From an uncultured delta proteobacterium (GTDB lineage: Bacteria; Desulfobacterota; Syntrophia; Syntrophales; Smithellaceae), in contig CAVSCG010000013.1 of the NCBI GenBank assembly GCA_963726395.1, positions 90,562-154,561 on the forward strand: a stretch of 64,000 nt of DNA, given 5' to 3'. The translations under genes were made by a program, and so were the position numbers. Numbering within the stretch: position 1 is the first letter of the stretch; each line of letters starts with the position of its first letter. Shown here piece by piece: positions 4,159-58,905 of this stretch. Below the pieces are notes generated by a model. It had not been told where the DNA came from and ran no database searches. It saw nothing but the letters and a program-made list of their open reading frames with translations.

Positions 4159-4801
4159 CTCGAACTGCCTCGGATTCGATCAGCGTCATCATCAGCGAGT
4201 AATTGACCCGTTCCGACGCCTGAAGATCAATAGTGGAATAGGGATTGGCCGATCCTCCCGCGAGCGTAACGCTGCGTTGCAAACGGCCGCCTTCCGAGTA
4301 GCGACGGATGTGGATTGGTCCGTCATGACCTTGCAATACATCAATCCAGCCACCCGGCTCTTTATGCCGGCGGCAGACTGTCTCGCCGGTGGCGAAAACA
4401 CCCTTCTCGGTGAGCGCACCCTGGGGCGCGAGAAAAATCAGGTCGATATCGTCCATCATTTTTCGGGCAAAGTCCGCCGCGTCAAAAGGCGGCAGCGCCC
4501 GGCTGACTTTCAGCCCATCCGGCCCTGAAACGGCTTCAAAAAGAGCCATGCCTTCCGCACTCATCAGGGCGCAGGAAATTGTCCTCGTGGCAGGATCCGT
4601 CATCGTCACGCCAATCATGACGGTTTGCACCTGACCGGCTGCGCGCACTTCAATCGCGTGAATGAGACGGATTTTTTCCGTAAGAAATGGGGATGGACAC
4701 ATGATGTTTTTTTCTGCAAGATCCGCAACCGGCCGGATAGCCGGCAGGGCAGCACAAGAAACCAGCAGCAAAGAACCGATCAAAAAAAGGAGGCCTTTCA
4801 T
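4136..4801 (-). CDS. lipoprotein of unknown function (DUF3261-like by context)
   Basis: 221-aa ORF with a signal peptide and lipobox LLVSC. ATGA start/stop overlap with the upstream LolA-like gene. The family assignment comes from context and memory, not an alignment. Confidence 0.55.
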   Translation of the reverse strand: MKGLLFLIGSLLLVSCAALPAIRPVADLAEKNIMCPSPFLTEKIRLIHAIEVRAAGQVQTVMIGVTMTDPATRTISCALMSAEGMALFEAVSGPDGLKVSRALPPFDAADFARKMMDDIDLIFLAPQGALTEKGVFATGETVCRRHKEPGGWIDVLQGHDGPIHIRRYSEGGRLQRSVTLAGGSANPYSTIDLQASERVNYSLMMTLIESEAVRDEPQHKE

Positions 4802-5409
4802 TGAACATCCTGAAAGACGGACGGTTGAATTTCCTGGTTGATGACAACATGCTGAAAGTCAATCCGGGTTTCTGCTGTGGCGCTTTCCACAATCCGCACG
4901 GATTTAATGGACGCATCTTTTCGGGAAACCGTAATTTCAATTTTTTCAATCATGCCGGCCATGCTTTTCCCCACCGGCGTCAGCGTAATTTGCGTGTTGG
5001 ATCCTTCCTTAAGTGTGGCGGTAAAGGAAGGATTGGAGGTAAACTTGCCGCTCATCCAGCCGGCCACTTCGTCGAGTACAATTTTCATCGCCTGTGCGCC
5101 GCCGGTTTTATCTTCAACCATTTTACCCCCGGAGGCGATATAGCGTTTTGTATTCCCCTTGTCGGAAATGACCACACTCTTGATGGGTTTACTATATTCC
5201 CAGCGGATGGAATCCGGCGCTGTATAATAAAACTTCCCTTCCGAGACCAGCGGTTTGGACAGAATCTTCATGAACTTCTTTTGCACAAAATCAGCGGAAA
5301 TGGTTGAAATGCGCGACGAGTCCCGGCGCAATCGTTCAAAGTTATCCGCACGCACGCTCGCCGGCAGAAGCATCAGCAGAATCAGCAAAACCATAAATAT
5401 TTTTTTCAT
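4798..5409 (-). CDS. LolA-like outer-membrane lipoprotein carrier family protein
   Basis: Signal peptide MKKIFMVLLILLMLLPASVRA. LolA-like pattern (ISADFVQKKF...GKFYY..PDSIRWEY). Start chosen at the Met preceded by GAGGA. The ORF track extends to 5433. Confidence 0.65.
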   Translation of the reverse strand: MKKIFMVLLILLMLLPASVRADNFERLRRDSSRISTISADFVQKKFMKILSKPLVSEGKFYYTAPDSIRWEYSKPIKSVVISDKGNTKRYIASGGKMVEDKTGGAQAMKIVLDEVAGWMSGKFTSNPSFTATLKEGSNTQITLTPVGKSMAGMIEKIEITVSRKDASIKSVRIVESATAETRIDFQHVVINQEIQPSVFQDVQ

Positions 5410-5429
5410 GGAAGCAACCTGGATCATCC

Positions 5430-6164
5430 TCAAAACATCCCGCCGTTGATGGCAATCACCTGCCCTGTAATATAGGAAGCGTCATCAGAACACAAAAAGC
5501 GGATCACACGGGCAACTTCTTCGGGTTTCCCCACCCGCGCCATCGGAATAACGCTTTTAATCATGTTTTCGTCCATCGGCATACTGCTTAACATATCTGT
5601 TCCGATGGGACCCGGCGCGACCACATTGACACGAATGCCGAAACGCGCCACTTCTTTGGCAAGTGAGCGCGAGGCGGCGTTGATCCCTGCTTTGGCCGCC
5701 GCGTAATTGGTCTGCCCGCGATTGGGAATCATCGCCGAGATGGAAGAGACGGATACAATGGCGCCGCGTTTCTTTCTGACCATTTCGCGCAAGACGGGCT
5801 TCGTTACATTATAAAACCCATGGAGTATCGTATTAATGACACCGTGCCATTCCTCCTCTCCCATCAGCATAAAGAGACCGTCGGCGGTCACACCGGCGTT
5901 ATTGACCAGCACATCAATTCTTTTATGCTCCTCAATAATTTTCGCCAGCGCTTCTTTCACCTCTGCTGCGTTGGCCACATCGAATTTTCGTATTTCACCA
6001 GCCGAACCTGCGGCTTGAACCTTTGCCAGCGTTTCAACCGCCGCCGCCTCGCTGGAATTATAATTGATCACGACATAATAACCGGTTCTGGCCAACTCCA
6101 CAGCCGTAGCCCGTCCGATGCCCCGGCTGGCCCCAGTCACAATGGCTATCTTTTTTTCATCCAT
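5430..6164 (-). CDS. fabG: 3-oxoacyl-ACP reductase (SDR family, FabG-like)
   Basis: 244-aa ORF with TGASRGIGRA cofactor motif, NNAG, and catalytic YAAAKAG (YxxxK). Confidence 0.9.
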   Translation of the reverse strand: MDEKKIAIVTGASRGIGRATAVELARTGYYVVINYNSSEAAAVETLAKVQAAGSAGEIRKFDVANAAEVKEALAKIIEEHKRIDVLVNNAGVTADGLFMLMGEEEWHGVINTILHGFYNVTKPVLREMVRKKRGAIVSVSSISAMIPNRGQTNYAAAKAGINAASRSLAKEVARFGIRVNVVAPGPIGTDMLSSMPMDENMIKSVIPMARVGKPEEVARVIRFLCSDDASYITGQVIAINGGMF

Positions 6165-6190
6165 GATCTCCGTAAACTCCTTTGTTTATT

Positions 6191-6613
6191 TTATGATACA
6201 TCATGATTCAGACGCATGGCCTGAAGTATTGCCGTAAGCAAAATATCGTCGCCCGATTTCACAATGCCTTCGATCACACCGTATTGCTCAAACGCATATA
6301 AACTGCGGACAAATACCGTGATTCGTGTGTCCAGTGCAATGAAATCCTGTTTAAATTCGGCAGACTTGATACCGACCAGCCAGCCTTTCGTGCCGTCTTT
6401 ACCTTGTTTCTTTCGCTTGTAACCTTCCACCAGAGCGGCCGTCTGGGCAATGGCTTCAATTAAAACAAGCGAACGGACCGCCCGGCCGTCGCAAAGAGGC
6501 CAGCGTTCATTGACCACAGCTGAGGCGATGCCATCATTATCGTTTAGTTCTATGATCTCCGTGATGATTTTGATCGGTTCACGATGCGGAATCAACAATT
6601 CGATATCGATCAT
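6191..6613 (-). CDS. hotdog-fold dehydratase (FabZ/ApeP-like)
   Basis: About 140 aa with LIPHREPIKII...LIEAIAQT, typical of hotdog dehydratases. Start set at the Met with AGGA 9 nt upstream. The ORF track extends to 6658. Confidence 0.7.
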   Translation of the reverse strand: MIDIELLIPHREPIKIITEIIELNDNDGIASAVVNERWPLCDGRAVRSLVLIEAIAQTAALVEGYKRKKQGKDGTKGWLVGIKSAEFKQDFIALDTRITVFVRSLYAFEQYGVIEGIVKSGDDILLTAILQAMRLNHDVS

Positions 6614-17327: not shown

Positions 17328-18582
17328 ATGAAAGATGTAGTTATTGTATCAGCATGCAGAACAGCTATAGGGGCTTTCGGGGGCACATTGAAGAACATGA
17401 TCGCAGCCCGCATCGGGGCTGTTGTGATGAAAGAGGCCGTTAAGCGGGCCGGCATAGACCCGTCCATCATTGACGATGTCAGGTTCGGCTGCTGCCTTGA
17501 ACATCCTAATACACTCAACACCACCCGCGTGGCGGCTCTTCTGGCCGGCATTCCGGAGACAGTGACTGCTGTCACCGTGAATCGCGTGTGCATTTCCGGC
17601 ATGGAAGCCGTTCTCAGCGGCATGGCGATGATCCAAAGCCGGAATGGCCGACATCATTCTGGCCGGCGGCGTTGAGCATATGTCCGGCGCGCCCTATGCC
17701 AGTTTTGATGCACGATGGGGCTGCCGCCTTCAGGACAGCGTTTTAGTGGACTCCCTGATCCGCGCCTTGCACTGCGGCTCTTATGTGATGCCGTTATCGG
17801 ACGATGGCCCCGTCAAATCAGGCCAGCCATTCGAGAGCTTAAAAGGCAAGCCTTATATCATGGGCCATACCACGGAACTTATCGCCCAACTTTTGAACAT
17901 CAGCCGCCAGGAAATGGACGAAGTCGCTCTGCGCAGCCATAACAACACCGAGCGCGCTACCAAGAATGGTGATTTCAAGGAAGAGATTGTACCCATCGAG
18001 ATCCCCCAGAAAAAAGGCAAGCCGCCCATTATTTTTGACAAGGATGAGCATTTCCGTCCGGGATTGACGATGGCGCAGTTGCAGGAATTACCGCCGGCAT
18101 TTATTCCCAAAACAGGCAAGGTAACGGCCGGCAACTCTTCCGGACTAAACGATGGCGCTTCCGCCATGATCATCATGTCGGCGGAAAAAGCCAAGGAATT
18201 AGGATTAAAGCCGATTGCCAGAATCCGTTCCTCCGCGCGCGGTGCCTGCCATCCATCTGTCATGGGTTTAAGCCCGGTTCCAGCCGTAAAAAACCTGCTC
18301 AAAAATGACCCGAAGCTTACCTTGGATGCTTTTGAGTTGATGGAACTCAACGAAGCCTTTGCAGGACAGTATTTGGGCTGCGAGAAAGAACTCGGAATTA
18401 ACCGGGAAATCACCAATATCAACGGATCGGGTATCGGCCTTGGACATCCGGTAGGGTCCACTGGTTGCCGGATTATGGTCACGCTGATTCATGCCATGAA
18501 AAAACACGGCAAGACCCTGGGAATGGCCACGCTGTGCGGCGGTGGCGGGGTATCGATGGCTACCTCTATTGAAATGCTGTAA
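17328..18582 (+). pseudogene. acetyl-CoA C-acetyltransferase (thiolase), interrupted by one frameshift
   Basis: N-terminal fragment with active-site VNRVCISGMEAV (17328..17675). C-terminal fragment with GGVEHMS...NGSGIGLGHPVGSTGCR...CGGGG (17644..18582). Deleting one C in AGCCGGA at about 17638-17641 restores ...AMIQSGMADIILAGGVEHMS. Confidence 0.9.
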
Positions 18583-36085: not shown

Positions 36086-39000
36086 TTAAGCCTTTTTCAA
36101 ACCGCGGCTTCGCCAGATCATATAAATGGCCGGATAAATAATCAGCTCTAAAATCGTAGATGTGATAACGCCTCCGATCATGGGCGCGGCGATTCGCTTC
36201 ATCACATCCGCACCCGCGCCGTCGCTGAACATGATCGGAATTAAGCCGGCCAGAATGACGCACACCGTCATCATCTTGGGGCGGATGCGTTTGACCGCGC
36301 CGATACATGACGGCATCTTCAGATCACTTCTTTGTTTTCAAGAAGCCCTTCTTTCTTCCATTTCTCATAAGCCAGATCCAGATACAAAAGCATGACGACG
36401 CCTGTTTCGGCATCCAGGCCGGCAAGCGCGATGATGCCCACCCACACGGCAATGCTCATGTTGTAATTCAGAAGGTAGAGAAGCCAGAAAGAACCGACCA
36501 GCGAGAACGGCACAGCCAGCAAAACAATGGCGGTCTTGGTCACCGAGTGCGTATTGAGAAACAGAATCAGAAAATGATACAGCAGCGTAAAGGGAATAAT
36601 CAGCTTCAGACGCTCGTGCGTCTTCAGAATATACTCGTATTCCCCGCTCCAGACCAGGCGGTAGCCTTCCGGCATTTTGAGCGTTGCCGCTTTTTTGCGG
36701 GCCTCTTCCACATAACCTCCGACATCGCGATCGCGTGATATCAATATACACATAGGAGGTCATAAGGCCTTCTTCGCTTTTAATCGCCGTCGGTCCGCGG
36801 ACGACGCGAAAATCAGCCAGTTCGCCCAACGGAACCTGTAAAATGCCGTTGGCTGCGGTCATCGAGGACGGAGGACGCCTGACTGACGCTGGCGGCTGTC
36901 ATCACCGGCACAAGAATGCGTTTGAGTTTATCCACGTCATTGCGCAGTTCCCGCGGGTAGCGGATATTCACGGGATAGCGCGCCCGGCCTTCCACCGTGG
37001 TGGTGAGATTCATGCCGCCGATAGCGGTTTGAATGACTTCATTGACATCATCCACCGCCAGACCATATCGGGCAATGCCTTCTCTTTTAATGACAATATC
37101 CAGAAAATAGCCGGTCGCTACCCTTTCCGCATAAACACTGCGCGTGCCGGGAATCATCCCGCAAATGATGCTCCAGAGTCCATGCCGATTTTTTCAATTA
37201 CTTCCAGATTCGGCCCCAGGATTTTAATGCCCACCGGCGTACGGATACCCGTGGCCAGCATGTCAATGCGCGCCTTGATCGGCATGGTAAAGGAATTGGC
37301 TACACCGGGAATATTGAGCGCATCATTCATTTCATCTTTGATTTTTTCCGCCGTCATGCCTTTGCGCCACTGATCTTCCGGCTTCAGATTGATGACGGTT
37401 TCAAACATTTCCAGCGGCGCCGGATCGGTGGCCGTTTCCGCCCGGCCGGCCTTACCGAAGACCTGGGCAACTTCCGGAATTTTCATCAGGATTTCATCCT
37501 GCATTTTCAGTAGTCTGCGCCGCTTCTGATAGCGGAAGCTCCCGGCATGGTCACGGGCATATAGAATAGCGATCCTTCATAAAGAGGCGGCATAAATTCC
37601 GATCCCAGTTTCATAAAGGGATAAGCGGTCAGAGCCATAATGATGATGGCAATAACAATAACCGTTTTGCGGAAACGGATGGCCAGGTGGGCCACCGGTT
37701 CATAAATTTTATGCAGAAAACGGCTCACGGGATTTTTTTCTTCCGGCCGTATTTTCCCCCGGATGAACAACGTCATCAGCACTGGTGTCAGCGTAATCGC
37801 CAGAAATGAGGAAAAGAGCATGGCAAATGTTTTGGTATAGGCCAGCGGTTTGAACAGACGTCCCGCCTGCGCCTGCAGCGTAAAGACGGGCAGAAAGCCA
37901 CAGTGATCACCAGCAGGGCAAAGAAAAGAGACGGCCCTACTTCCTGGGCGGCGGCAATGATGACATCCGTTCTGTTACCGGGGCTTCCCTGCTGCTCCCA
38001 TTCTTCGAGCTTTTTATGGGCGTTTTCCACCATAATGATGGAGGCATCCACCATCGCTGCCGATGGCGATGGCAATGCCGCTCAAGACTCATGATATTGG
38101 ATGTCACGCCCAGATAATACATGCAGATAAAAGAAATGATGATGGCAATGGGCAGCGTCACAATCACCACCAATGCGCATGGCAGATGAAATAGAAAGAT
38201 CAGGCAGACAACACTCACGGCAATAGCCAGTTTAATAATTTCATCTTTGAGTGTGGCGATGGATGCGATGAATCAGGTCGGAGCGGTCATACGTCGTGAC
38301 AATTTTCACGCCTTTGGGCAGACTGGGCGCAATATCATTTTTGATTTTATCTTTGACCCGCTCAATGACATTGAGAACGTTTTCGCCGAAACGGACAACA
38401 CAATCCCTCCGGCCACTTCTCCTTTGCCGTCCAGTTCCGCCAGTCCCCGGCGAATTTCCGGCCCGAGCTGCACACGGGCGACATCTTTCAAATAGATGGG
38501 CGTGCCCGCCGCACTGGCCCCCACGGCGATATCTTCCAGATCCTTTACATTCTTGATGATAGCCACGACCCCGCACCATGTATTCCGCGCCGGAAAATTC
38601 CAGCACCCGTCCTTCCACATCCCGGTTGCTTTTGCGCACGGCTTCCATGACTTTAGCGATCGGGCAGATTATAAGCAGACAGGCGATTGGGATCGACAGT
38701 GATCTGATACTGATTGACGAAGCCGCCGATGCTCGCCACCTGAGACACACCGGCAACGCTTTCCAGCGCCAGCTTGACGTTATAGTCCTGAAGTGAACGA
38801 AGTTGCGCCAGATCGAGCCCGCCTGATTCATCCACAACGGCATAGGAAAATCCCCAGCCAAGGCTGGTGGCATCCGGGCCTAAAACCGGATTGACATCGG
38901 TGGGGATTTTATTTTTGACGGCCTGAAGGTATTCCAATATGCGGCTTCTGGCCCAGTAGATATCGGTCCCTTCTTCAAAAATGACATAGATGAAGGAACT

Positions 39001-39256
39001 GCCTAAAAAGGAAAATCCGCGCACCGCCTGGACTTTCGGCGCGGCAAGCAGAGTGGAGGTGATGGGATAGGTGATCTGATCTTCCACCAGGTCGGGGCTG
39101 CGACCCGGCCATTCGGTATAAATGATAACCTGTGTATCGCTTAAATCGGGAAGGGCATCAAGCGGCGTATTTTTGAGCGTCCACAATCCCCAGACCACGG
39201 CAAAAAACAAAACAGGAAAACAATAAATTTATTGCGGGCGCTGATTCAATGATTTT
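36086..39256 (-). pseudogene. cusA: CusA/CzcA-family heavy-metal efflux RND permease, fragmented by at least 13 frame changes
   Basis: About 11 ORF fragments tile a complete CusA-like sequence, from MIGKIIE..SARNKFIV..FFAVVWGLWTLKNTPLDALPDLSD at the N-terminus to ...[47 protein letters not shown] at the C-terminus. The ATG at 39256 forms an ATGA overlap with the cusB stop. Confidence 0.9.
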
Positions 39257-44259: not shown

Positions 44260-45387
44260 TCATGCAGATAACTGCGCCAGCCACTTGCCGGCATCGACAA
44301 TGTCAACGTTATGAATCTGTTGTTCGCGCCTCAGATTCTGTACCAGTTGAACGGCTTTTGCTTTGGGTAATTTTTGTGCAAACAATTTGAAAGAAGCCGA
44401 AGGGATATCATCGGAAAGTTTAACTTCGATTAAATGCGTCGCTTTCTTTTTTCTGCTCAGAGAGAAATCAATCTCCCTGCCGTCTTTGGTTTTAATATAA
44501 TTCAGTTCCACGTCCTCACCGGTTGTGTCCTGCAAATACTGCACATGTTTTAAAAGACAAACAGCGCAGGTATTCTCCAGCTGAATGCCTTCTCCGCCCA
44601 GAACATAACCGCTGTCATAAAAATACAGTTTAGGTTCTTTCAAAATGGCCCTGGCCACATTGGCATGAAAAGGTCGCACCGTGAACACAATACATAGACT
44701 TTCCAGGATATCGATATACTTCCGCACCGTGTTGGGTGCCAGTTGCAAGTCCTGCGCGATCGATGTATACGAAATCGGAGAACCGACTCTGGAGCGCAGC
44801 AACTCCAATAAAAGTTTCATCGAACGAATTTCCTGTAATCTGCCGAATTCCAGAATATCCTCCCTGATCAGGTCGGTATAATACTGATTTCTCCAGCGGG
44901 CCGCTTCCGTTTCGGAGCCGGATAAAAAAGGTTCCGGAAATCCGCCCAGTCTATTAAGAAGCTCAAGAGCTTCATCAGGTGGAACGGCACCTTTCAGCTC
45001 ACGGACGGAAATCGGATTGAGCCGCATGGAGAAATAACGACCGGCAAGCGATTCGCCGGATTGCCGGAAAGTGTCCAGCCGCGCACTGCCGGTAATCAGC
45101 ATGGACTGTTTTTGCGGGCGTGTGTCAAAAACACCTTTAACAAATTTTTTCCAATCCGTTTTTTTATGGATTTCATCAAGAACAAGCAGATCGCTTTTCA
45201 CAGGCCAGGACTGCGAGTTAATAATCCTGGCGTCCTCTATATTGTCATAATTCAAATACTGAGGCGTTTTGAATTCCGGCATAAGCGCTTTGGCCAGCCA
45301 TGTTTTGCCGACTTGCCGCGGACCGGTTAAAATGACCATCTTCTTTTGCAAATCTTTTTTTATCGGATGATAAAGATATCTTTCCAT
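44260..45387 (-). CDS. AAA-type ATPase with C-terminal DUF4143-like domain
   Basis: 375 aa with Walker A LTGPRQVGKT and Walker B LLVLDEIH. The C-terminal region is of the DUF4143 type (from memory). Confidence 0.75.
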   Translation of the reverse strand: MERYLYHPIKKDLQKKMVILTGPRQVGKTWLAKALMPEFKTPQYLNYDNIEDARIINSQSWPVKSDLLVLDEIHKKTDWKKFVKGVFDTRPQKQSMLITGSARLDTFRQSGESLAGRYFSMRLNPISVRELKGAVPPDEALELLNRLGGFPEPFLSGSETEAARWRNQYYTDLIREDILEFGRLQEIRSMKLLLELLRSRVGSPISYTSIAQDLQLAPNTVRKYIDILESLCIVFTVRPFHANVARAILKEPKLYFYDSGYVLGGEGIQLENTCAVCLLKHVQYLQDTTGEDVELNYIKTKDGREIDFSLSRKKKATHLIEVKLSDDIPSASFKLFAQKLPKAKAVQLVQNLRREQQIHNVDIVDAGKWLAQLSA

Positions 45388-46667: not shown

Positions 46668-46696
46668 TTGACAAAGTAATTTGTCTCTATTATCCT
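46668..46696 (+). promoter_or_regulatory. sigma70-like promoter with overlapping dyad (candidate MarR operator)
   Basis: TTGACA (46668-46673), 17 nt, TATCCT (46691-46696). The dyad GACAAA-gtaa-TTTGTC (46670-46685) overlaps the -35 box and spacer. Confidence 0.45.
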
Positions 46697-46736
46697 CGTA
46701 CACAAGTAAATTGCATGCAAGGATAAATTCATTTCT

Positions 46737-47162
46737 ATGCTCGAAACAGATTGTATTTTCTTTCAGCTGGCAAAGGTCCATCAACTCGCCAACCGGTTTC
46801 TCAGCCAGAAGGTTTCCGAGCTCAATATCACATCCGTGCAAGCAATGGTTCTGGGCTTTCTTGATCAAGAAGATCAAATCACATCCAGTGAACTCGGTAA
46901 AAGGACTGAGCTGGACAGCGCAACGCTCACGGGCCTTCTTGACCGTCTGGAGGCCACAGGGTTTATCGAACGCAAGGGGAATCCCGATGACCGCCGATCC
47001 ATCCACATTCATCTGACTAAAAAAGGCAAAGCCATGAGCCGGGAAGCAACCAGAGTGATAGCCGCAGGCAATTTAGAGTTTCTGCAAGGGTTAACCCTCG
47101 CAGAAAAACAGGATTTAAACGGTATCATAAAAAAACTTCGTCTTATGGCGCCCGGTTCATAA
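46737..47162 (+). CDS. MarR family transcriptional regulator
   Basis: 141 aa with a wHTH ...ITSSELGKRTELDSATLTGLLDRLEATGFIERKGNPDDRR. Confidence 0.85.
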   Translation: MLETDCIFFQLAKVHQLANRFLSQKVSELNITSVQAMVLGFLDQEDQITSSELGKRTELDSATLTGLLDRLEATGFIERKGNPDDRRSIHIHLTKKGKAMSREATRVIAAGNLEFLQGLTLAEKQDLNGIIKKLRLMAPGS

Positions 47163-47209
47163 AGGCGCACGTCGGACATCCGGCCATACCGCCGGGGAAA
47201 GGAGCAATC

Positions 47210-49446
47210 ATGGGAACCATCCATAAAACCGGATGTGTATTATGCGCGCAGAACTGCGGTCTGGAAATCGAGGTGGAAAACAATCGCATTGTCAAAGTAA
47301 AACCGGACAAATCCAATGCTAGAAGCGAGGGCTACTTCTGCCGTAAAGGCATGAACGTCGCTTATCACCAGCACAATGCCGACCGCCTGAAATACCCGCT
47401 AAAAAAAGTCGGGGACAAATTCGAACGGATATCCTGGGATCAGGCCATCGATGAAATTGCGGCCAAACTCAAAAGCATAATCGGCCAGCACGGCCCCCGT
47501 TCCTTTGCCTACATGGGCGGAGGCGGTCAGGGCTGCCATTTTGAGGTTCCCTTCGGTGTTCGCCTGATGCGGGGCCTTGGCTCTCAGTATCAGTATAGCG
47601 CGCTGGCGCAAGAATTCGCCGGCGCCTTCTGGGTGGTAGGACGCACACATGGCAAGCAGTACCTTCATGATCAGCCGGATGTGAATAACACCGATCTTCT
47701 TTTAGTGTTCGGCTGGAACGGCATGCAGAGCCATCAGATTCCACAGGCGCCCCGACAGCTCCAGCGACTTTCCAAAGATAAAGACAAAATGCTGATCGTG
47801 GTTGATCCGCGGGTGTCGGAAACCGCTAAACTGGCCGACATTCACCTGCGAATCCGTCCCGGCACGGATGCTCTGCTGCTCAAAGCCATGATTTCCATTA
47901 TCCTGAAAGAAGGATGGCAAAACAAAGACTATCTGGCCAACCGCACATCGGGCTTTGATTCAATAAAATCATATTTTGAAAATTTTGATGCCCACGCCGC
48001 CATCAAAGTCTGTGATCTGGATTTTGATCAGGTCCGCGAAGTCGCAAGGCTTTACGCCACACGCAAATCATCATTTCGCTACGACCTCGGCATTTACATG
48101 GGACGCCACAGCGGCCTGAACTCCTATTTGATCGTTATTCTTCAGTCGATCTGTGGCAGGCTCTGCGTCCCCGGCGGCAATGTCATTAACGGCCACATGA
48201 TGCCCATCGGCCCCAACAGCGATGAAAGAGATCCGAAAACCTGGCGGACCGTGGCGACGAATGCCTTCCCGGTTTGCGGTGTTTTTCCGCCCAATGTCAT
48301 GCCGGAAGAAATTCTCTCCGATCATCCCGAGACGCCTGCGGGCGGTTTTCGTTACCGGTTTGAATCCCCTGCGTTCCTATGCGGACACTACCGCCTATGA
48401 AAAAGCATTCCAGAAACTGGACCTGCTGGTCACGGCGGAACTGGCCATGACGGAAACGGCCGCCCTTTCTCATTACGTGCTGCCGTCGCGTTCGGGCTAT
48501 GAATCATGGGACGGCACTTTTTTCCCCATGACCTATCCCGGCATATATCTTCCAGATGCGCCGGCCGATTGTCGAACCGGAGGGAGAGCCGAAAGAACAG
48601 GGTGAAATCGATCTGCTCCTGGCCGACAAGCTGGGGCTGATTCCGCCGATTCCGGAAAGCCTCTACAAAGCAGCCTTCGAGAGTCGTCCGGTGTTTGCCA
48701 AGGCCCTGATGGAGTATGCCATGACAGAACCGAAAGCCATGAAAGCCATGCCGTTTATTCTGGGAAAGACGCTGGGCAAGGCGATGGGCTCGGTGCATCT
48801 GGCGGCGCTCTGGGGCATGCTGCAGGTTGCCCCGAAGTCATTATATAAGAATGCCATCCGGGCGGGCTTTAAGTCAGGCCCGACAATGGGTGAAGAAATT
48901 TTCCAGCAGATTCTCGATCATCCCGAAGGTATCTGGGTGGGCCGGATCGACCCGGACAATAATTTTGCGGAAGTGAAGACGGAGGATGGCAAAATTCATC
49001 TACTCATTCCTGAACTGCTCGATGAGCTCAAAGCCATTGACGCGGCCAGAGAAGAAGCGGCGCTGACGCTGCCTGCGGAATTTCCGCTTATACTCATGGC
49101 GGGAAAGCACATCGATAAAAACGCCAATACATTGATGCGCGATCCCGCATGGAACGAAGGTAAGCGCGCCTGTACGATCACCATGCATCCCGCCGACGCG
49201 GCAGCCTTGAATTTAAAGGACGGCCAACAGGTTCGTGTAACCACCGAGGCCGGCTCCGAGGAAATTGAACTGGAAGTGACAGACACGGCCCGCAAAGGCC
49301 ATGTGGTGATCCCGCACGGCTTCGGCCTGGTTTATAACGGCGTAAAATACGGCGCCAACGTGAACCGCCTGACTAAGAATACTCACCGCGACCAGTTCGG
49401 AACGCCGATTCACAGATTCGTTCCGTGCCGGGTGGAGGCTGTCTGA
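47210..49446 (+). pseudogene. cytoplasmic molybdopterin (bis-MGD) oxidoreductase, interrupted by two frameshifts
   Basis: N-terminal Fe-S motif CVLCAQNCGLEI...(x27)C, with no TAT signal. Three fragments (47210..48400, 48222..48605, 48556..49446) join as ...EEILSDHPE/RLRAVFVTGLNP... at about 48330 and ...YPGIYL/QMRRPIVEPEG... at about 48550. The C-terminal beta-barrel domain contains TMHPADA...V.V.T..G. Confidence 0.85.
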
Positions 49447-49485
49447 TAGCGGAAGAAAATGCAGGTAACTGAATAAAGGATTCCC

Positions 49486-50580
49486 ATGGCAGATGAATTG
49501 TATGATCGACTGGCGGATATTTTTAACCTCATCGGATATGGTAGCCGCAGAAGTCCTGAACTGGAAGCACTACTGAAGTCACTCTTTACGCAAGAGGAGG
49601 CGCACTTAGCTGTCAATCTCTCACCAATGGCTCCGGAATCTCCCGGTAACCTGGCCAGCCGGCTCAATTTAGATACGGGTCGTGTGGCCCGTATGCTCGA
49701 CGAGATGGCCGATAAAGGATTAATTTACTCCAGCACACGTGATGGTGAAAAATGGTACAAGCTGCTTCAACTCGTCCCCGGCATCTTCGAGCTGCAATTC
49801 ATGAAAGGCGAAGTGACTGAACGCGCCAAAGAACTGGCCCGTCTGTTCGATGCCTATTTTCATGCCAGCGTACCGCAGAAAGAAGCCAAATCTCCTTTTG
49901 CTGACGAGGCGGCGATCCACATGGCGCGCGTTCTTCCGATCGAGCAAACCCTGACGGCGACGACCAATGTTTTTCCCTTTGAAGTTGCCAGTAAATATAT
50001 CGCAGAGAATTCACCCATCACGGTTTCCATCTGCTATTGCCGTCATGAAAAACGGCTATTGGATAAGGGCTGCAAATATCCCGACGAAGTCTGTCTCCAG
50101 CTGGGCCCTTTCGCGGAATTCGTCAGGGAACGCGGGTTTGGCCGCGAGATCAGCAAAGCGGAAGCTCTGGAGATTTTGAAAAAGAGTGCCGAGGCCGGCC
50201 TGATCCATACATCCAGCAACACGAAGGAACGCATTGACTTTATCTGCAACTGTTGCACCTGCTGCTGCGGAATTCTGCAAGGCGTTTATCGCTTCGGCGA
50301 CCCCGTCAGAAGCGTCTCCAGCAATTTCGAGGCGGCGCTGGACGCGGATGCCTGTACCGGTTGCGGAGAATGTTTGGATCGCTGCCAGATGGACGCCATC
50401 ACGATCGTGGAGGATAAGGCTGAAATAGAGATCGGGCGCTGCATCGGCTGCGGCGTTTGCGTTTACCACTGCCCCACGGACGCCATAACACTCGTATCAC
50501 GCGCCGATTTTGTCGAACCCCCCAAAAGTTTTAAGGAGCTGATCAAAAAACAGGCAGCCGCAAAAATGAAAAAGGGTTGA
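49486..50580 (+). CDS. wHTH-like / poly-Cys / 2x[4Fe-4S] ferredoxin-domain protein (paralog 1 of 4)
   Basis: 364 aa with CYCRHEKRLLDKGCKYPDEVC, FICNCCTCCCG, CTGCGECLDRC and CIGCGVCVYHCP. N-terminal HTH-like NLASRLNLDTGRVARMLDEMADKGLIY. Confidence 0.7.
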   Translation: MADELYDRLADIFNLIGYGSRRSPELEALLKSLFTQEEAHLAVNLSPMAPESPGNLASRLNLDTGRVARMLDEMADKGLIYSSTRDGEKWYKLLQLVPGIFELQFMKGEVTERAKELARLFDAYFHASVPQKEAKSPFADEAAIHMARVLPIEQTLTATTNVFPFEVASKYIAENSPITVSICYCRHEKRLLDKGCKYPDEVCLQLGPFAEFVRERGFGREISKAEALEILKKSAEAGLIHTSSNTKERIDFICNCCTCCCGILQGVYRFGDPVRSVSSNFEAALDADACTGCGECLDRCQMDAITIVEDKAEIEIGRCIGCGVCVYHCPTDAITLVSRADFVEPPKSFKELIKKQAAAKMKKG

Positions 50581-50682
50581 TCGCGGCCATTGAATATCCG
50601 GCTGGCAGCTATTGCCCGGGTGATGCGCTTTACAGCGACGTAACTGCCGTGGATTTAAATCAAAAGTTAAGGGAGGAAAATA

Positions 50683-51255
50683 ATGAAAGTCGTCGGTTTT
50701 GTGGGAAGTCCAAGAATAAAAGGCAATACAACCAGCATCGTCAATGAGGTTTTACGCGGTGCATCCGAGGCCGGAGCTGAAACAAAAATATTTAATCTCA
50801 ATGAGTTGGGCATCCGGGGATGTCAGGCTTGTTATAAATGCCAGACTCCGGAAGGAAAGTGCGTTCAGACAGACGGCATGGCTCCGCTTTATGATGAAAT
50901 CTTCAGCGCCGATGCCGTCGTGATCGGGACGCCGGTCTTCATGTTCCAGATAACCGGTCAAACCAAGACTTTTATCGACCGGCTTTTTGCCCTGTTGTAT
51001 CTCAAGGATGGCAAACCGGGAGCGTTCAGGAATAAGATAAAAGGAAAGAAGGTCATAACCGTCTATTCGCAAGCACAGCCGGAAACCAGCTTGTTTGCTT
51101 CGTCCTTCGATCTGAATGAAGGCGTCCTTGGTTTCCTGGGCTTCAAGGTTGAGGGCCGCATTGCTGCGGGAGGAATGGCAAGCCTGGATTCGGCAAAGAA
51201 CAATCAAACTGTTATGGATCAAGCTTATAAGGCAGGTATCGAGTTGGCAAAGTGA
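50683..51255 (+). CDS. flavodoxin-like NAD(P)H-dependent FMN reductase / iron-sulfur flavoprotein family
   Basis: 190 aa: MKVVGFVGSPRIKGNT..., a CQACYKC cysteine pair, and GTPVFMFQITGQTK. RBS GGGAGG. Confidence 0.75.
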   Translation: MKVVGFVGSPRIKGNTTSIVNEVLRGASEAGAETKIFNLNELGIRGCQACYKCQTPEGKCVQTDGMAPLYDEIFSADAVVIGTPVFMFQITGQTKTFIDRLFALLYLKDGKPGAFRNKIKGKKVITVYSQAQPETSLFASSFDLNEGVLGFLGFKVEGRIAAGGMASLDSAKNNQTVMDQAYKAGIELAK

Positions 51256-51282
51256 AAACATAAGCGAAGAAAGGAAAAAATA

Positions 51283-52086
51283 ATGAGTGAACTAGTAAAC
51301 ATTTCAATAGAAAATCATGTAGCGGATGTCCGTTTCAACAGACCTGAAAAATACAACGCTTTGAGCTTTGCCATGATCGACGCCATGGCCGACGCCATCA
51401 ACCGGCTGGCAAAGGAGCCCGGCGTTCGGGCTGTTGTCATCTCCGGCGAAGGCAAGAGCTTCTGCGCCGGGCTGGATATTGAGAACTTCGCGGCCATGCA
51501 GGCCGGAGAAAATAAGTTTCCCAATCTCACGGATCGATACCAGAACCGGATTTCCAATATCTATCAGCATATCGGATATGGATGGAAAGAGCTCCCCGTG
51601 CCGGTCATCGCGGCCATTCATGGCGTAGCGTTGGGCGGCGGTTTCCAGATCGCCATGGGGGCTGACATTCGATTCAGCACGCCCGATGCAAAATTCTCCA
51701 TCATGGAAATGCGATGGGGATTGATTCCGGATATGAGCGTGACTCAGACCGTCCGCGATGTCGTATCGATTGACGTGGCCAAAGAACTGATCTTTACGGG
51801 TAAAACCATCAAAGGTGAAGAAGCGGCCCGCTTGAAGCTCGTAACACACGTCTGTGAAAAACCCTATGAAGAAGCCATGGCACTGGCCAGGGAGATCGCA
51901 TCCAAAAATCCCGATGCCATTCGCGCGGCAAAAAAGCTCATCAATGAGGTCTGGCATGGAGATTCGGGCAGAGGCCTGATGATGGAATCCGAACTGATGA
52001 TGACGCTCATGGGTAGTCCCAACCAGTTGGAGGCGGTGACTGCAAATTTTACCAAACAGCCTCCCAAATTCAAGGACCCGGCCTGA
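51283..52086 (+). CDS. enoyl-CoA hydratase/isomerase (crotonase) family protein
   Basis: 267 aa: RPEKYNAL...GEGKSFCAGLDI...AAIHGVALGGGFQIAMGADIR. Confidence 0.9.
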   Translation: MSELVNISIENHVADVRFNRPEKYNALSFAMIDAMADAINRLAKEPGVRAVVISGEGKSFCAGLDIENFAAMQAGENKFPNLTDRYQNRISNIYQHIGYGWKELPVPVIAAIHGVALGGGFQIAMGADIRFSTPDAKFSIMEMRWGLIPDMSVTQTVRDVVSIDVAKELIFTGKTIKGEEAARLKLVTHVCEKPYEEAMALAREIASKNPDAIRAAKKLINEVWHGDSGRGLMMESELMMTLMGSPNQLEAVTANFTKQPPKFKDPA

Positions 52087-52176
52087 CACGATCATCGCCT
52101 ATATCCCTTCTTGACCCTTCAGCCTTTTCATTGTAGGGGAACAGGCAATGATCCGAAAAAAAGAAGGAGACAGCCC

Positions 52177-52527
52177 ATGAGTAACGCCAACGAACCCAAA
52201 ATAACGAATATCAAAATAAATCCCGATAACCTTTATCGAGAAGAATCCTTCACGGACCTGACGTATGCCACGATCCGACGTCTTACGCCCGTCAAGATTG
52301 ACGGCTCGCCTGATGAGAGCCGGGAACCCCTTTTCACCGGCATGGCCCAGTTGATGTCCCCCAACGGACCGATTCCGGTTCAGTGTGTGATTGAAGGGGC
52401 CAAGACACTCAGCGATGCAGCCGCTAAATTACCCGACGCTATTGAAAAAGCTGTTCAGGCCATGATTGCCGAGGCTAAGGAAATGGAGCGGGAGGAATCT
52501 TCACGAATCGTGATACCCGGCCAATAA
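52177..52527 (+). CDS. conserved hypothetical cytoplasmic protein
   Basis: 116 aa from the ATG preceded by AGGAGA. No motif recognised. The ORF track extends upstream to 52111. Confidence 0.5.
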   Translation: MSNANEPKITNIKINPDNLYREESFTDLTYATIRRLTPVKIDGSPDESREPLFTGMAQLMSPNGPIPVQCVIEGAKTLSDAAAKLPDAIEKAVQAMIAEAKEMEREESSRIVIPGQ

Positions 52528-52542
52528 GCATGAGGTTTGACT

Positions 52543-52932
52543 ATGATTGAAAACACTATCGCCACATGGCACAAATTGGTTGACGCCAGGGACGCGGCAT
52601 GTCTCGACAATATCCTGGCCGAGCAGGTTGTCTTCCATTCCCCCGTGGTTCATACACCGCAAGTGGGAAAGCCGATCACTACATTATATCTGACAGCGGC
52701 GCTGCACGTCCTCAACAACGACACGTTTAAGTATCTGAGAGAAGTCATTTCCGGTAATCAAGCCGTATTGGAGTTTCAGACCGTGATTGACGGCATCTCC
52801 ATCAACGGCGTGGACATGATCACCTGGGGCGAAGACGGCAGAATTATTGACTTCAAGGTCATGCTCAGACCGTTAAAAGCCGTCAACCTGGTCCACAAAA
52901 TGATGGGTGATATGCTGCAAAAGATCAAATGA
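52543..52932 (+). CDS. NTF2/SnoaL-like fold protein
   Basis: About 129 aa: MIENTIATWHKLVDARDAACLDNILAEQVVFHSPV... The pattern is typical of SnoaL-like proteins. The assignment is by pattern only. Confidence 0.55.
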   Translation: MIENTIATWHKLVDARDAACLDNILAEQVVFHSPVVHTPQVGKPITTLYLTAALHVLNNDTFKYLREVISGNQAVLEFQTVIDGISINGVDMITWGEDGRIIDFKVMLRPLKAVNLVHKMMGDMLQKIK

Positions 52933-55479: not shown

Positions 55480-56643
55480 ATGACTGCCAATGAGTGTATT
55501 GAGACTTTTATGCCGACAGACGATTCTATTTACAGACAGCTTCAGATTCAATTAGACCGTTATCCAATCGGGTATCCCGCAACAAAAAGCGGTGTGGAAA
55601 TTGATATTCTGAAATATTTTTTTACACCCCTTCAAGCCAAAATTGCTTTGTGTCTGACGCTTCGCTCCATCCCCATTGCCCCCATCCGTAAAAGGCTGAA
55701 AAATAAATTTCATATTGAATTGTCCCATGATGATCTGGCCGCAATGCTGGATGAAATGTTTGTGAAAGGCGTCATCCGGCGGTCGGAAAACGCAGGATCA
55801 CCCAGCTACGGAGTTGCCATGCTGGCCATCGGCATGTTTGAATATCAGGTGGATGCTCTCACCTCTGAGCTCGTGGAGATGATGCATCGGTATTTTGACG
55901 AAGCCTTCGGCGAGGAGTTTTTCCGCTCGTCCCTGCCCCAGTTACGAACCAGCCCGCATCTGAGAGCGATCGTTCCGGAATATCTTGTCGATACCTATGA
56001 CAACATGCGGCACTTCATCACCCATACCAAAGAAACGCTCCATGTGGCCAACTGCGTCTGCAAGCAGGGCGAGGCCCTGATGGGAATGCCCTGCAAACAA
56101 ACGGACAACTATGAGGTCTGTCTGCTCATCGGATCAACCAGCTACGCGGCACGCAACCGAGCTCGGCAGATCTCCAAAGAGGAATGCCTGAAGATACTGG
56201 ACATGGCCGAAGAAAAAGGAATGGTGCTTCAACCGGGCAATTCCAAAAAGCCCAGCTGCATCTGCATCTGCTGCGGCTGTTGCTGCGGCGTTTTGACCAC
56301 CGCAAAAAAGCAGCCCCGGCCTGCCCGATTTTTTGCCACCAATTATTATGCCCGAATCGACATGGATTCCTGCACCGGATGCGGCGCCTGTGAAAAACGT
56401 TGTCAAATGGACGCGATCATCGCGGATGGCAAAACCTTCCGTGTTGATCCAGATCGATGCATCGGTTGCGGCCTTTGCGTAACCAGGTGCAAACCCAAAG
56501 CCGCCAGGCTGATCAAGAAAGACAAGGCAACCGTGCCGCCCATGAACACCGAGATTTTGTATTTAAGCATTCTGATGGAAAGAGCCGGCACAAAAAAGAT
56601 GATCGTTAATATGCTGAATCTTCTTTTCGGGAAACCCTTATGA
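55480..56643 (+). CDS. wHTH-like / poly-Cys / 2x[4Fe-4S] ferredoxin-domain protein (paralog 2 of 4)
   Basis: 387 aa with NCVCKQGEALMGMPCKQTDNYEVC, CICICCGCCCG, CTGCGACEKRC and CIGCGLCVTRC. Confidence 0.7.
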   Translation: MTANECIETFMPTDDSIYRQLQIQLDRYPIGYPATKSGVEIDILKYFFTPLQAKIALCLTLRSIPIAPIRKRLKNKFHIELSHDDLAAMLDEMFVKGVIRRSENAGSPSYGVAMLAIGMFEYQVDALTSELVEMMHRYFDEAFGEEFFRSSLPQLRTSPHLRAIVPEYLVDTYDNMRHFITHTKETLHVANCVCKQGEALMGMPCKQTDNYEVCLLIGSTSYAARNRARQISKEECLKILDMAEEKGMVLQPGNSKKPSCICICCGCCCGVLTTAKKQPRPARFFATNYYARIDMDSCTGCGACEKRCQMDAIIADGKTFRVDPDRCIGCGLCVTRCKPKAARLIKKDKATVPPMNTEILYLSILMERAGTKKMIVNMLNLLFGKPL

Positions 56644-56666: not shown

Positions 56667-58598
56667 TTAAAGTTCTATTTGTGTACCGAGCTCAACAACC
56701 CTATTTGCGGGAATTCCAAAGTAAGAGGTGGGATTCCCCGCATTTCTGGACATGAAGGCGAAAATAGCTTTACGCCACCGCATCATTTTCGATCTTCCCC
56801 CCGTGAGGAGCGTTTCCCTGCCCAGGTAAAAAGTCGTGGTCATCGGATCGGTAACGAGTCTATAATTGGCGACCATTTTCATGACCTGCGGCACATCTGG
56901 TTTCTGCATGAAGCCATAGGATGCTTCAACACGGTAAAACCCTTGACCCAAATCATTCAGTTTAATTTGTTCGTTGTCAGGAACCGTTGGACTATCTTTG
57001 AATATAATGGAAAGGAGAACCACTTTTTCGTGCAATACGTGGTTGTGTTTTATATGGTGAAGCAGTGTCGGAGGAGTTCCCTCAGGAGATAACGTCATAA
57101 AGACGGCGGTTCCGGGAACTCGCGGCATACTACTTTTCGGCAATCCAGAAAGAAAACTGTCTATGGGAAATCTTGCCCCGATTAACTTACGGTAGAGTTC
57201 ATTTCGTCCTTTTTTCCACGTGGTCATGGCCATCGCTATAATCGCTGCAACAAAGAGAGGAAACCATCCCCCGTCGGCAATCTTGAAGATGTTACCAGTG
57301 AAAAAAGCAACATCGAACGCCAAGAACATTCCGACAAGGGGTATAACCTTCCACAGAGGCCACTTCCTTTCATGGGTCAGCACGAGAAAATAAAGAAACG
57401 ATGTGATGATCATGGTTCCTGTAACAGCAATGCCATATGCACCGGCCAGCCTCCCGGACTCCTTGAACCCGATAACAACAGCAATACAGGCTATCATCAG
57501 GGCATAATTTACAAAAGGAATGTATATCTGCCCCTGCATCTCGCTTGATGTGTGGACAATCCGAACTCGGGGACAAAAGCCCAACTGTACGGCCTGCTGT
57601 GTGAGTGAAAATGCGCCGGATATTAGCGCCTGAGAAGCTATCACCGTTGCAACGGTAGAAAGTCCGATCATTGGATACAGCAGGAACTCCGGTACGATCT
57701 TATAGAAGGGGTTGATGTTCATTTCCGGATGGGCCAGTAACAAAGCCCCTTGCCCAAAATAGTTGCATAGCAATGTGGGTAAGACAAACAGAAACCAAGA
57801 ATGCCGGATGGAATCTCTACCAAAATGTCCCAGATCGGCATAGAGAGCTTCGCAACCCGTAACACAGAGAACGACTGATCCGAGCACAATAATGCCGTGA
57901 GTTCCATTGTTCACAAAAAACTCTAGGGCATAGACCGGATTAACGGCATAAAGAACCGTCGGTTCACGTATGATCTGAATGATGCCGAAAACACCAATCG
58001 ATACAAACCAGAGCGCCATGATCGGAGCAAATAATTTCCCGATATGAGTCGTGCCTTTATGCTGCAATGAAAAAAGCAAAACGAGCATAACACAGGTTAA
58101 AGGCAACACAAAAGGCGCCGCGGCCTTTGTGGCGACTTCAAGTCCTTCAATTGCAGAAAGAACGGATATGGCAGGTGTGATGACTCCGTCTCCATAAAGA
58201 AGCCCTGCGCCCAGAATCCCCGCAAACACGAGAATGGGCTGGATGCGGCGGGAGATGCTTTTATCAGAGGTTCGCAAAAGACCGAGCAGGGCAAAGATGC
58301 CGCCTTCACCCCGATTGTCGGCCCGTAGGATAAACGTGATATATTTGACGCTGACGACAATGGTCATTGACCAGAAGATGAGAGATAAAACACCCAAGAC
58401 ATTCGTCATACTGGGGTTAATTGCATGCGTCCCATGGAAGCATGCCTTGATGGCGTAAAGGGGGCTTGTTCCTATATCGCCAAAGACAACACCAATCGAT
58501 CCAACTGCAAGCAAAAGGATTTTTTTATTGAGCCACTTGCGGGGGGATTTTCCCTTGGATTTAACAGCACCGTGATTTTCAGAACTTGATGATGACAC
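56667..58598 (-). CDS. kup: KUP/HAK/KT-family potassium transporter
   Basis: 643 aa with the FGDIGTSPLY signature, 12 TM helices and a cytoplasmic C-terminal domain. GTG start with GGAGG 6 nt upstream. Confidence 0.95.
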   Translation of the reverse strand: MSSSSSENHGAVKSKGKSPRKWLNKKILLLAVGSIGVVFGDIGTSPLYAIKACFHGTHAINPSMTNVLGVLSLIFWSMTIVVSVKYITFILRADNRGEGGIFALLGLLRTSDKSISRRIQPILVFAGILGAGLLYGDGVITPAISVLSAIEGLEVATKAAAPFVLPLTCVMLVLLFSLQHKGTTHIGKLFAPIMALWFVSIGVFGIIQIIREPTVLYAVNPVYALEFFVNNGTHGIIVLGSVVLCVTGCEALYADLGHFGRDSIRHSWFLFVLPTLLCNYFGQGALLLAHPEMNINPFYKIVPEFLLYPMIGLSTVATVIASQALISGAFSLTQQAVQLGFCPRVRIVHTSSEMQGQIYIPFVNYALMIACIAVVIGFKESGRLAGAYGIAVTGTMIITSFLYFLVLTHERKWPLWKVIPLVGMFLAFDVAFFTGNIFKIADGGWFPLFVAAIIAMAMTTWKKGRNELYRKLIGARFPIDSFLSGLPKSSMPRVPGTAVFMTLSPEGTPPTLLHHIKHNHVLHEKVVLLSIIFKDSPTVPDNEQIKLNDLGQGFYRVEASYGFMQKPDVPQVMKMVANYRLVTDPMTTTFYLGRETLLTGGRSKMMRWRKAIFAFMSRNAGNPTSYFGIPANRVVELGTQIEL

Positions 58599-58604
58599 AA
58601 ATAA

Positions 58605-58780
58605 CCTCCGAAGATTGTCTAGGGGAGAATAATCCTCCCGGACTACTCCGGTTGGTTCTCCTCATCGAAGCCTACGAAGTTAGCTGAAGGGCTCGGGTCG
58701 AAGAGGTTACCCTACGCCGTAACGATGCGCCCCAAAATATTGGTTCCTCCGCTCCTGAAAGTCAGGATTAGGCATATGTT
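58605..58780 (-). promoter_or_regulatory. c-di-AMP riboswitch (ydaO/kimA class) candidate in the kup 5' leader
   Basis: The minus strand reads GCCUAAUCCUGACUUUCAGGAGCGGAGGAACCAAUAUUUUGGGGCG...GUAGGGUAACC...CGACCCGAGCCCUUCAGCUAACUUCGUAGGCUUCGAUGAGGAG. This matches both halves of the ydaO motif as I recall it. It is followed by GGGAGG-auuauu-CUCCCC and the SD GGAGG. Confidence 0.8.
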
Positions 58781-58905
58781 GTGCGATAGCTAAATCATCT
58801 TTTAAAGTTTGTCAATCAACTTATAACGAGTATTTTCAGAGATATTTTACTGAGAGAACTGCTGATTTTCTAAATAATCGAATCTTCGTAACCCTACATC
58901 TTCCA

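Follow-up and report, generated by a model that had tools for sequence, protein, structure and literature searches.

We analyzed a gene cluster headed by a MarR-family regulator and a molybdenum- or tungsten-dependent oxidoreductase in a 64,000-nucleotide stretch of DNA (hereafter the window) from an uncultured member of the Smithellaceae (assembly GCA_963726395.1, contig CAVSCG010000013.1, positions 90,562 to 154,561). Seven genes lie in tandem on the forward strand. The regulator, 141 amino acids (aa) long (46737-47162; Pfam MarR PF01047, E = 2e-15, 56.6 bits against a cut-off of 24.6), is followed by the oxidoreductase (hereafter the Mo enzyme; 47210-49446), a predicted binder of Mo or W through bis-pyranopterin guanine dinucleotide (bisPGD) in the dimethyl sulfoxide (DMSO) reductase family, whose reading frame changes twice and which measures 744 aa once repaired. 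Downstream lie genes for an Fe-S protein (49486-50580, 364 aa; Pfam Fer4 families and a weak MarR match), a flavodoxin-fold NAD(P)H-dependent flavin mononucleotide (FMN) reductase (50683-51255, 190 aa; Pfam FMN_red, E = 5e-25), a crotonase/enoyl-coenzyme A (CoA) hydratase family protein (51283-52086, 267 aa; Pfam ECH_1, E = 7e-45), a conserved 116-aa protein of no recognizable family (52177-52527, with its ATG start at 52177 and the same length in relatives), and a SnoaL/NTF2-like protein (52537-52932, 131 aa; Pfam SnoaL_2). Open reading frame (ORF) and Pfam calls place these genes 9 to 102 nt apart, bearing out the tightly spaced, co-directional cluster described in an earlier note on this DNA, and a terminator scan of the cluster found nothing convincing between the seven genes.

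The Mo enzyme matches Pfam Molybdop_Fe4S4, Molybdopterin, and Molydop_binding in that order, each above its gathering cut-off, and its AlphaFold model (predicted local distance difference test [pLDDT] score, 94.5) has the DMSO reductase fold. Residues Cys9, Cys12, Cys16, and Cys44 are invariant in the aligned family members; because the Cys motif starts at residue 9, there is no room for a signal for twin-arginine translocation (TAT), which makes the enzyme cytoplasmic, in agreement with the earlier description of a protein of about 745 aa with an N-terminal Cys4 motif and no such signal. The model is about equally similar to structures of formate dehydrogenase (Fdh), Nap, acetylene hydratase, Psr, and Arr (TM-scores of 0.7 to 0.8 at 16 to 22% identity), and the best solved relatives by sequence are formate dehydrogenases and acetylene hydratase (E = 2e-46 to 1e-39). 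None of the NCBIfam equivalogs reaches its cut-off: TIGR01591 (Fdh-alpha) scores 269 bits against 666, PhsA 176 against 694, NasC NF047855 181 against 1100, and NF041323 92 against 1000.

Three independent HMMER alignments put Glu135 on a metal-ligand residue: selenocysteine 140 (Sec140) in FdhH, the Sec in F420-dependent Fdh, and Cys141 in acetylene hydratase. A Gln-Glu pair at this site is invariant in 78 orthologs, and the Glu135 position holds Glu, or Asp in the remotest group, in 31 of 31 aligned family representatives. In the DMSO reductase family, the protein ligand to the metal can be Ser, Cys, Sec, or Asp or can be missing (PMC11574389); with Glu135 aligned to the ligand position, the enzyme would depart from this set. 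The Fdh His is replaced by Phe, and the stretch that holds Fdh Arg333 falls in an alignment gap. Asp13, essential in acetylene hydratase (PMC12096430), corresponds to Ala here and to Ala, Pro, or Gly among orthologs, and the cluster motif reads CVLCAQNC here versus CQSCDINC in acetylene hydratase. Three candidate identities were rejected on these grounds: formate dehydrogenase (Glu-Phe instead of Sec-His, a gapped Arg333 region, and a score far from the Fdh-alpha cut-off), assimilatory nitrate reductase (NasC/NasA scores far under cut-off and Glu at the Cys ligand position), and acetylene hydratase (Glu at position 141 and Ala at position 13). The enzyme thus appears to stand outside the characterized clades, as the earlier note had supposed: no equivalog cut-off is reached, and the catalytic residues of Fdh, Nas, and acetylene hydratase are absent.

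When homologs of the Mo enzyme are clustered at 50%, about 30 of the best 150 listed representatives are full-length sequences with 34 to 57% identity, and the other full-length ones are near 30%. The family extends to Gammaproteobacteria, Alphaproteobacteria, and Dormibacteraeota, where its members bear generic names ("molybdopterin-dependent oxidoreductase"). Remote homologs (∼37% identity) also stand alone: one adjoins HxlR and nitroreductase genes, a second lies near Rrf2 and flavohemoglobin genes, and a third has no informative neighbors. Every component of the locus comes from a known superfamily; the enzyme clade is uncharacterized, and its predicted ligand residue is unlike that of all characterized members. 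It is a tentative and somewhat doubtful proposal that these proteins form a new clade of cytoplasmic Mo/W-bisPGD enzymes that have a Glu carboxylate ligand and, in a reaction new to the family, might for example hydrate or reductively dehydroxylate an aromatic or unsaturated acid; the clade would be present in syntrophs and, via the remote homologs, in many other phyla. If Glu135 is indeed a ligand, it would be a fifth ligand type and would widen the coordination chemistry of the DMSO reductase family.

We compared the cluster with 80 Smithellaceae and Syntrophales loci from species-level genomes, along with loci recovered by exact-protein look-ups. An intact Mo ortholog is present in the 80 loci at 53 to 91% identity, MarR is its immediate upstream neighbor in 33 of those loci whose sequence reaches far enough upstream, and the MarR-Mo pair is under purifying selection. 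What follows the Mo gene varies: the first gene downstream encodes crotonase in 14 loci, an Fe-S protein like the 364-aa one in 8, and an FmdE-family protein in 8, and in 17 it lies on the opposite strand. The seven-gene order, which the earlier note had treated as a single module, occurs in none of the 80 related loci, an outcome that the note itself had named as refuting its reading, and MarR-Mo alone recurs. In the closest relative (L001; GCA_022703275.1), synteny with the window extends to either side of the locus; Mo is followed directly by crotonase, and the genes for the Fe-S protein and FMN_red are missing. Synonymous divergence (dS) from this relative is 0.94 for the Mo gene versus 0.14 to 0.40 for the flanking genes. 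From these comparisons we conclude that the conserved unit is MarR-Mo. The seven-gene array is a strain-level mosaic of this core and two cassettes, as shown by the difference in dS and by the two genes missing from L001. Recurrent neighbors of the Mo gene encode acyl-CoA thioesterase, Old Yellow Enzyme (OYE), NMO, DUF169, a CCG Fe-S protein, and acyl-CoA ligase, and recurrent regulators near it are a sigma-54 regulator and an alternative TetR regulator.

The Mo gene itself has a mixed ancestry. In comparison with the closest relative and three further loci (L007, L013, and L005), its 5′ two-thirds are closest to L013 and L007 (87 to 92% nucleotide identity), positions 1440 to 1720 of the repaired gene are closest to L001 (93 to 94%), and the flanking genes are uniformly closest to L001; to judge from these identities, the Mo gene is a recombinational patchwork. 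Other differences between the window and its closest relative lie upstream of the locus: L001 carries a 1,019-aa MmeI-type restriction-modification gene (3239-6298 of that locus) 5′ of pfkB that is absent from the window, and the AAA_14/DUF4143 genes that the two have at this position (44260-45387 in the window) share only 28% identity. Eleven of the related loci (e.g., L051, 6007-6600) encode a member of the FmdE family whose C-terminal part is a treble-clef zinc finger. This protein, absent from the window, is possibly a maturation or accessory factor for the Mo enzyme clade.

A sigma-70-type promoter (46668-46696, forward strand; TTGACA-17 nt-TATCCT, 10 of 12 consensus positions) precedes the regulator gene. 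The perfect dyad GACAAA-gtaa-TTTGTC (GACAAAgtaaTTTGTC, 46670-46685), reported earlier to overlap the -35 box and spacer, is present inside this promoter match. Its proposed role as the MarR operator was not supported. When the upstream regions of 41 orthologous loci are aligned, both hexamers (TTGACA and TATnCT) are conserved and the 17-nt spacer is variable; the dyad sits in this spacer, the only variable part of a conserved promoter, and is not itself conserved in relatives. Perfect dyads with 6-nt arms and loops of 0 to 8 nt occur 2.7 times per kb in the window, and about 3% of 29-nt stretches hold one. A better candidate directly follows the -10 hexamer, where a 30-nt quasi-palindromic box (46697-46726; CGTACACAAGTAAATTGCATGCAAGGATAA) is near-invariant across the 41 loci (consensus, cGcATACAAGTAAATTGcATaCaAGgataaT). 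The box forms part of an imperfect 16-nt inverted repeat with arms at 46690-46705 and 46711-46726, and it overlaps the predicted transcription start. It has one match in the window, on both strands, versus 0.15 expected by chance, and its core occurs once, 5′ of MarR, in each of 22 fetched loci with an exact match. We consider this box the best candidate for the primary MarR operator. The dyad core AAGTAATTTG repeats the box core AAGTAAATTG 30 nt away, and therefore the spacer dyad may be an auxiliary MarR site in this strain.

The closest solved structures to the regulator are Escherichia coli MarR (E = 1e-14) and OhrR, and its top NCBIfam matches are regulators of phenolic-acid pathways, all far under their cut-offs. 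Its single cysteine, Cys6, lies in an invariant D-C-I-F-F-Q motif and is itself invariant in 45 orthologs. The HMMER stretch that aligns query residues 4 to 107 with OhrR residues 12 to 114 puts Cys6 at OhrR position 14, a placement read from the coordinates of the stretch and not from a residue-level alignment.

The accessory genes have histories of their own. The Fe-S protein combines an N-terminal winged helix, a Cys-rich middle domain with 10 invariant Cys residues (C-x-C-x10-C-x6-C and C-x-CC-x-CCC), and a C-terminal 2x[4Fe-4S] ferredoxin domain; solved-structure matches cover the ferredoxin domain only, and the model (mean pLDDT, 62.8) is confident in the winged helix and ferredoxin domain but not in the middle domain. 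Its homologs at 53 to 60% identity adjoin NMO or MaoC genes and have no Mo enzyme gene in their surroundings. Given this company of other enzymes, we rejected the idea that the Fe-S protein is a partner dedicated to the Mo enzyme. A second paralog with winged-helix, Cys-rich, and ferredoxin domains is encoded at 55480-56643 (forward strand, 387 aa, ∼32% identity; 91% in the closest relative), and Smithellaceae loci often carry several such Fe-S paralogs around the Mo gene, in both orientations. Close to this paralog, a cyclic di-AMP riboswitch (RF00379, 91.6 bits; 58654-58784, reverse strand) lies 5′ of a Kup-type K+ transporter gene (56667-58598), an ordinary arrangement.

In five related loci (L004, L005, L011, L016, and L076), FMN_red follows the Fe-S gene. 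The FMN_red-crotonase junction is common to three independent metagenome contigs (JGI metagenomes 3300036984, 3300037486, and 3300036982) that are 98.7 to 99.7% identical to positions 51000-52625 of the window, and therefore this junction is real. Crotonase exceeds the cut-off of NCBIfam NF005699 (329.5 bits against 249), a family with no assigned reaction. For the 116-aa protein, Pfam, NCBIfam, and PDB gave no match. Its counterpart in the closest relative is 97% identical, and its gene adjoins the SnoaL gene wherever both were found in the loci examined. The SnoaL protein matches PDB 3mso, annotated "steroid delta-isomerase" (E = 4.5e-22).

The two frame changes in the Mo gene lie where the earlier note had placed them, at about 48330 and 48550, and divide the gene into ORFs at 47210-48400, 48222-48605, and 48556-49446, all on the forward strand. 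Each is a single-base insertion that shifts the frame by +1: A48332 (GAG-A-CGC) and C48549 (TAT-C-TTC, equivalently T48548). A DNA alignment shows a gap at both positions in all four homologs, and neither insertion lies within a homopolymer. Removal of both bases yields a protein 91% identical over its full length to intact homologs of exactly 744 aa. The ortholog is encoded in one frame in 80 of 80 related loci, which rules out programmed frameshifting. In pairwise comparisons with six relatives, the ratio of nonsynonymous to synonymous divergence (dN/dS) of the repaired gene is 0.05 to 0.08 before, between, and after the breaks, equal to the value between intact orthologs; with no trace of relaxed selection, the breaks are either very recent or not real.

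A metagenome scan for both versions of the first site (extra base present or absent) found a single distant homolog, which reads GAG-CGC-CTG without that base, one unrelated match, and no contig from the same population. Exact-protein look-ups gave no record for the Fe-S protein or the acyl-CoA ligase, and exact crotonase matches lie only on contigs of 1.3 to 1.6 kb, none extending to the Mo gene. Two further genes in the window are disrupted. A thiolase gene (17328-18582, forward strand) consists of two overlapping ORFs with one +1 frame change near 17644-17675, Thiolase_N positions 1 to 103 falling in the first ORF and the remainder plus Thiolase_C in the second. A full-length gene for a CusA/CzcA-type resistance-nodulation-division efflux protein (∼36100-39207, reverse strand) switches frame at least six times and runs through all three frames; it aligns to residues 21 to 1042 of an E. 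coli CusA sequence at 30 to 56% identity and looks like a case of clustered indel errors rather than an old pseudogene.

The reading that we prefer, and to which we give about an even chance, is a two-gene core in which an autoregulating MarR controls a stand-alone cytoplasmic Mo/W-bisPGD enzyme of an uncharacterized clade that reduces the inducer compound. MarR would repress its own promoter by binding the conserved box over the transcription start, and the same promoter would drive the Mo enzyme gene. A small aromatic or electrophilic compound would inactivate MarR, by binding or through Cys6, and the Mo enzyme would then reduce the compound that had released the regulator. Electrons would enter the enzyme via the N-terminal [4Fe-4S] cluster from a soluble ferredoxin or flavodoxin; where present, the cassette of Fe-S protein and FMN reductase would feed in electrons from NAD(P)H, and the block of crotonase, small protein, and SnoaL protein would represent a second cassette with a different evolutionary history. 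Several points weigh against this proposal. In the HMMER match, Cys6 is one residue off Cys15 of Bacillus subtilis OhrR, and a thiol switch is only a lead. The recurrent crotonase, thioesterase, acyl-CoA ligase, OYE, and NMO genes fit CoA-ester catabolism at least as well as detoxification. The role of Glu135 as a metal ligand is a prediction from sequence alignment, and our literature search found no paper on the Mo enzyme clade or the locus, nor on a substrate or reaction. Finally, genuine frameshifts would mean that the unit no longer functions in this genome.

The main alternatives concern what the enzyme does and with which partners. All seven genes might instead, in line with the earlier note, form one catabolic operon for an aromatic or alicyclic acid as its CoA ester. 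The step assigned to the Mo enzyme would then be hydroxylation, dehydroxylation, or hydration of the substrate, with the Fe-S and FMN proteins as electron carriers and with crotonase and the SnoaL protein acting on the CoA ester. The tight, co-directional spacing with no internal terminator is what such an operon would look like; crotonase directly after Mo in 14 loci, the thioesterase, acyl-CoA ligase, OYE, NMO, DUF169, CCG Fe-S protein, and sigma-54 regulator genes that recur nearby, and the phenolic-acid regulators among the sub-threshold matches of MarR point the same way. This operon is nevertheless unlikely: its gene order recurs in none of the related loci, two of its genes are missing from the closest relative, an opposite-strand gene comes next after Mo in 17 loci, the crotonase block and the Mo gene differ in divergence history, and homologs of the Fe-S protein keep company with NMO or MaoC instead of a Mo enzyme. 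We regard as more improbable still a nonredox hydratase, like tungsten acetylene hydratase, that adds water to an unsaturated small molecule and whose [4Fe-4S] cluster only tunes the metal. The monomer-like size, cytoplasmic location, and single [4Fe-4S] cluster all fit, acetylene hydratase is the top solved structure by identity and gives the best alignment for the segment preceding the ligand position, and many loci have no adjacent electron carrier gene. Against these stand the loss of the essential Asp13 and of ligand Cys141 and, in several loci, Fe-S and flavoprotein partners directly downstream of the Mo gene.

A separate alternative is true and recent inactivation of the Mo gene, which would leave a pseudogene and a unit in decay in this lineage. 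This is a real possibility, although we lean the other way and think that the frame breaks are probably a sequence artifact. Two independent 1-nt insertions outside homopolymers, where base-calling errors are less typical, would suit inactivation, as would the other disrupted genes of the window and the intact accessory genes expected shortly after such an event. However, dN/dS after the breaks (0.06 to 0.10) is the same as between intact orthologs, and the gene is intact in all 80 species-level relatives. Each of the three simple breaks, two of them in the Mo gene and the third in the thiolase gene, is a +1 shift, and at least six frame switches in a CusA-like gene that retains 30 to 56% identity fit indel errors better than decay. 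An artifact is favored because the thiolase gene is also split by +1 and the CusA-like gene is heavily frameshifted yet still alignable, and because the Mo breaks lie near the edges of the patch where the closest relative changes, where mixed-strain consensus errors arise. The window has clustered frame errors, and pseudogene calls in this assembly need read-level checks before they are trusted.

Smithellaceae are key syntrophs in methanogenic hydrocarbon and fatty acid degradation and are almost entirely uncultured. A conserved regulator-enzyme pair under purifying selection in about 80 species of this family is a concrete, tractable target, and the conserved operator candidate offers a handle for finding the inducer and, via the inducer, the substrate.

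The proposed two-gene core shares features with several known systems and differs from each. Like autoregulated operons of the MarR/OhrR type, it places a small winged-helix repressor gene first and a (pseudo)palindromic site at the promoter; the conserved box here lies over the start site, not in the -35/-10 spacer, and Cys6 is out of register with the sensing Cys of OhrR and MgrA, by the coordinates of the aligned stretches. Formate dehydrogenases (FdhF/FdhH and F420-dependent FdhA) share the domain order, N-terminal [4Fe-4S] cluster, and cytoplasmic location of the Mo enzyme, are among its best solved sequence matches, and reach TM-scores of about 0.75 to its model, but they have a Sec or Cys ligand and a His where the Mo enzyme has Glu and Phe. 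The tungsten acetylene hydratase of Syntrophotalea acetylenica (PDB 2e7z) is likewise a monomeric, cytoplasmic protein of ∼730 aa with one [4Fe-4S] cluster, has identical spacing of the first three Cys residues (C9, C12, C16), and gives the top identity among solved structures (22%; TM-score, 0.77/0.78), whereas its catalytic Asp13 and ligand Cys141 correspond to Ala and Glu here. By description, the molybdenum catechol dehydroxylases of gut bacteria (Dadh, Hcdh, Cldh, and Dodh) are also comparable, as enzymes binding bis-molybdopterin guanine dinucleotide that are related to acetylene hydratase and act reductively on aromatics; the PDB matches of the Mo enzyme include no dehydroxylase. The wider catechol dehydroxylase group includes anaerobic aromatic degraders, and its Gordonibacter type is soluble with no TAT signal (PMC7028382); the catalytic subunits of the Gordonibacter dehydroxylases have no Fe-S motif (PMC11574389). 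The Eggerthella dehydroxylases carry TAT signals and membrane anchors, in contrast with the Mo enzyme of the Smithellaceae, which has an Fe-S motif and no TAT signal.

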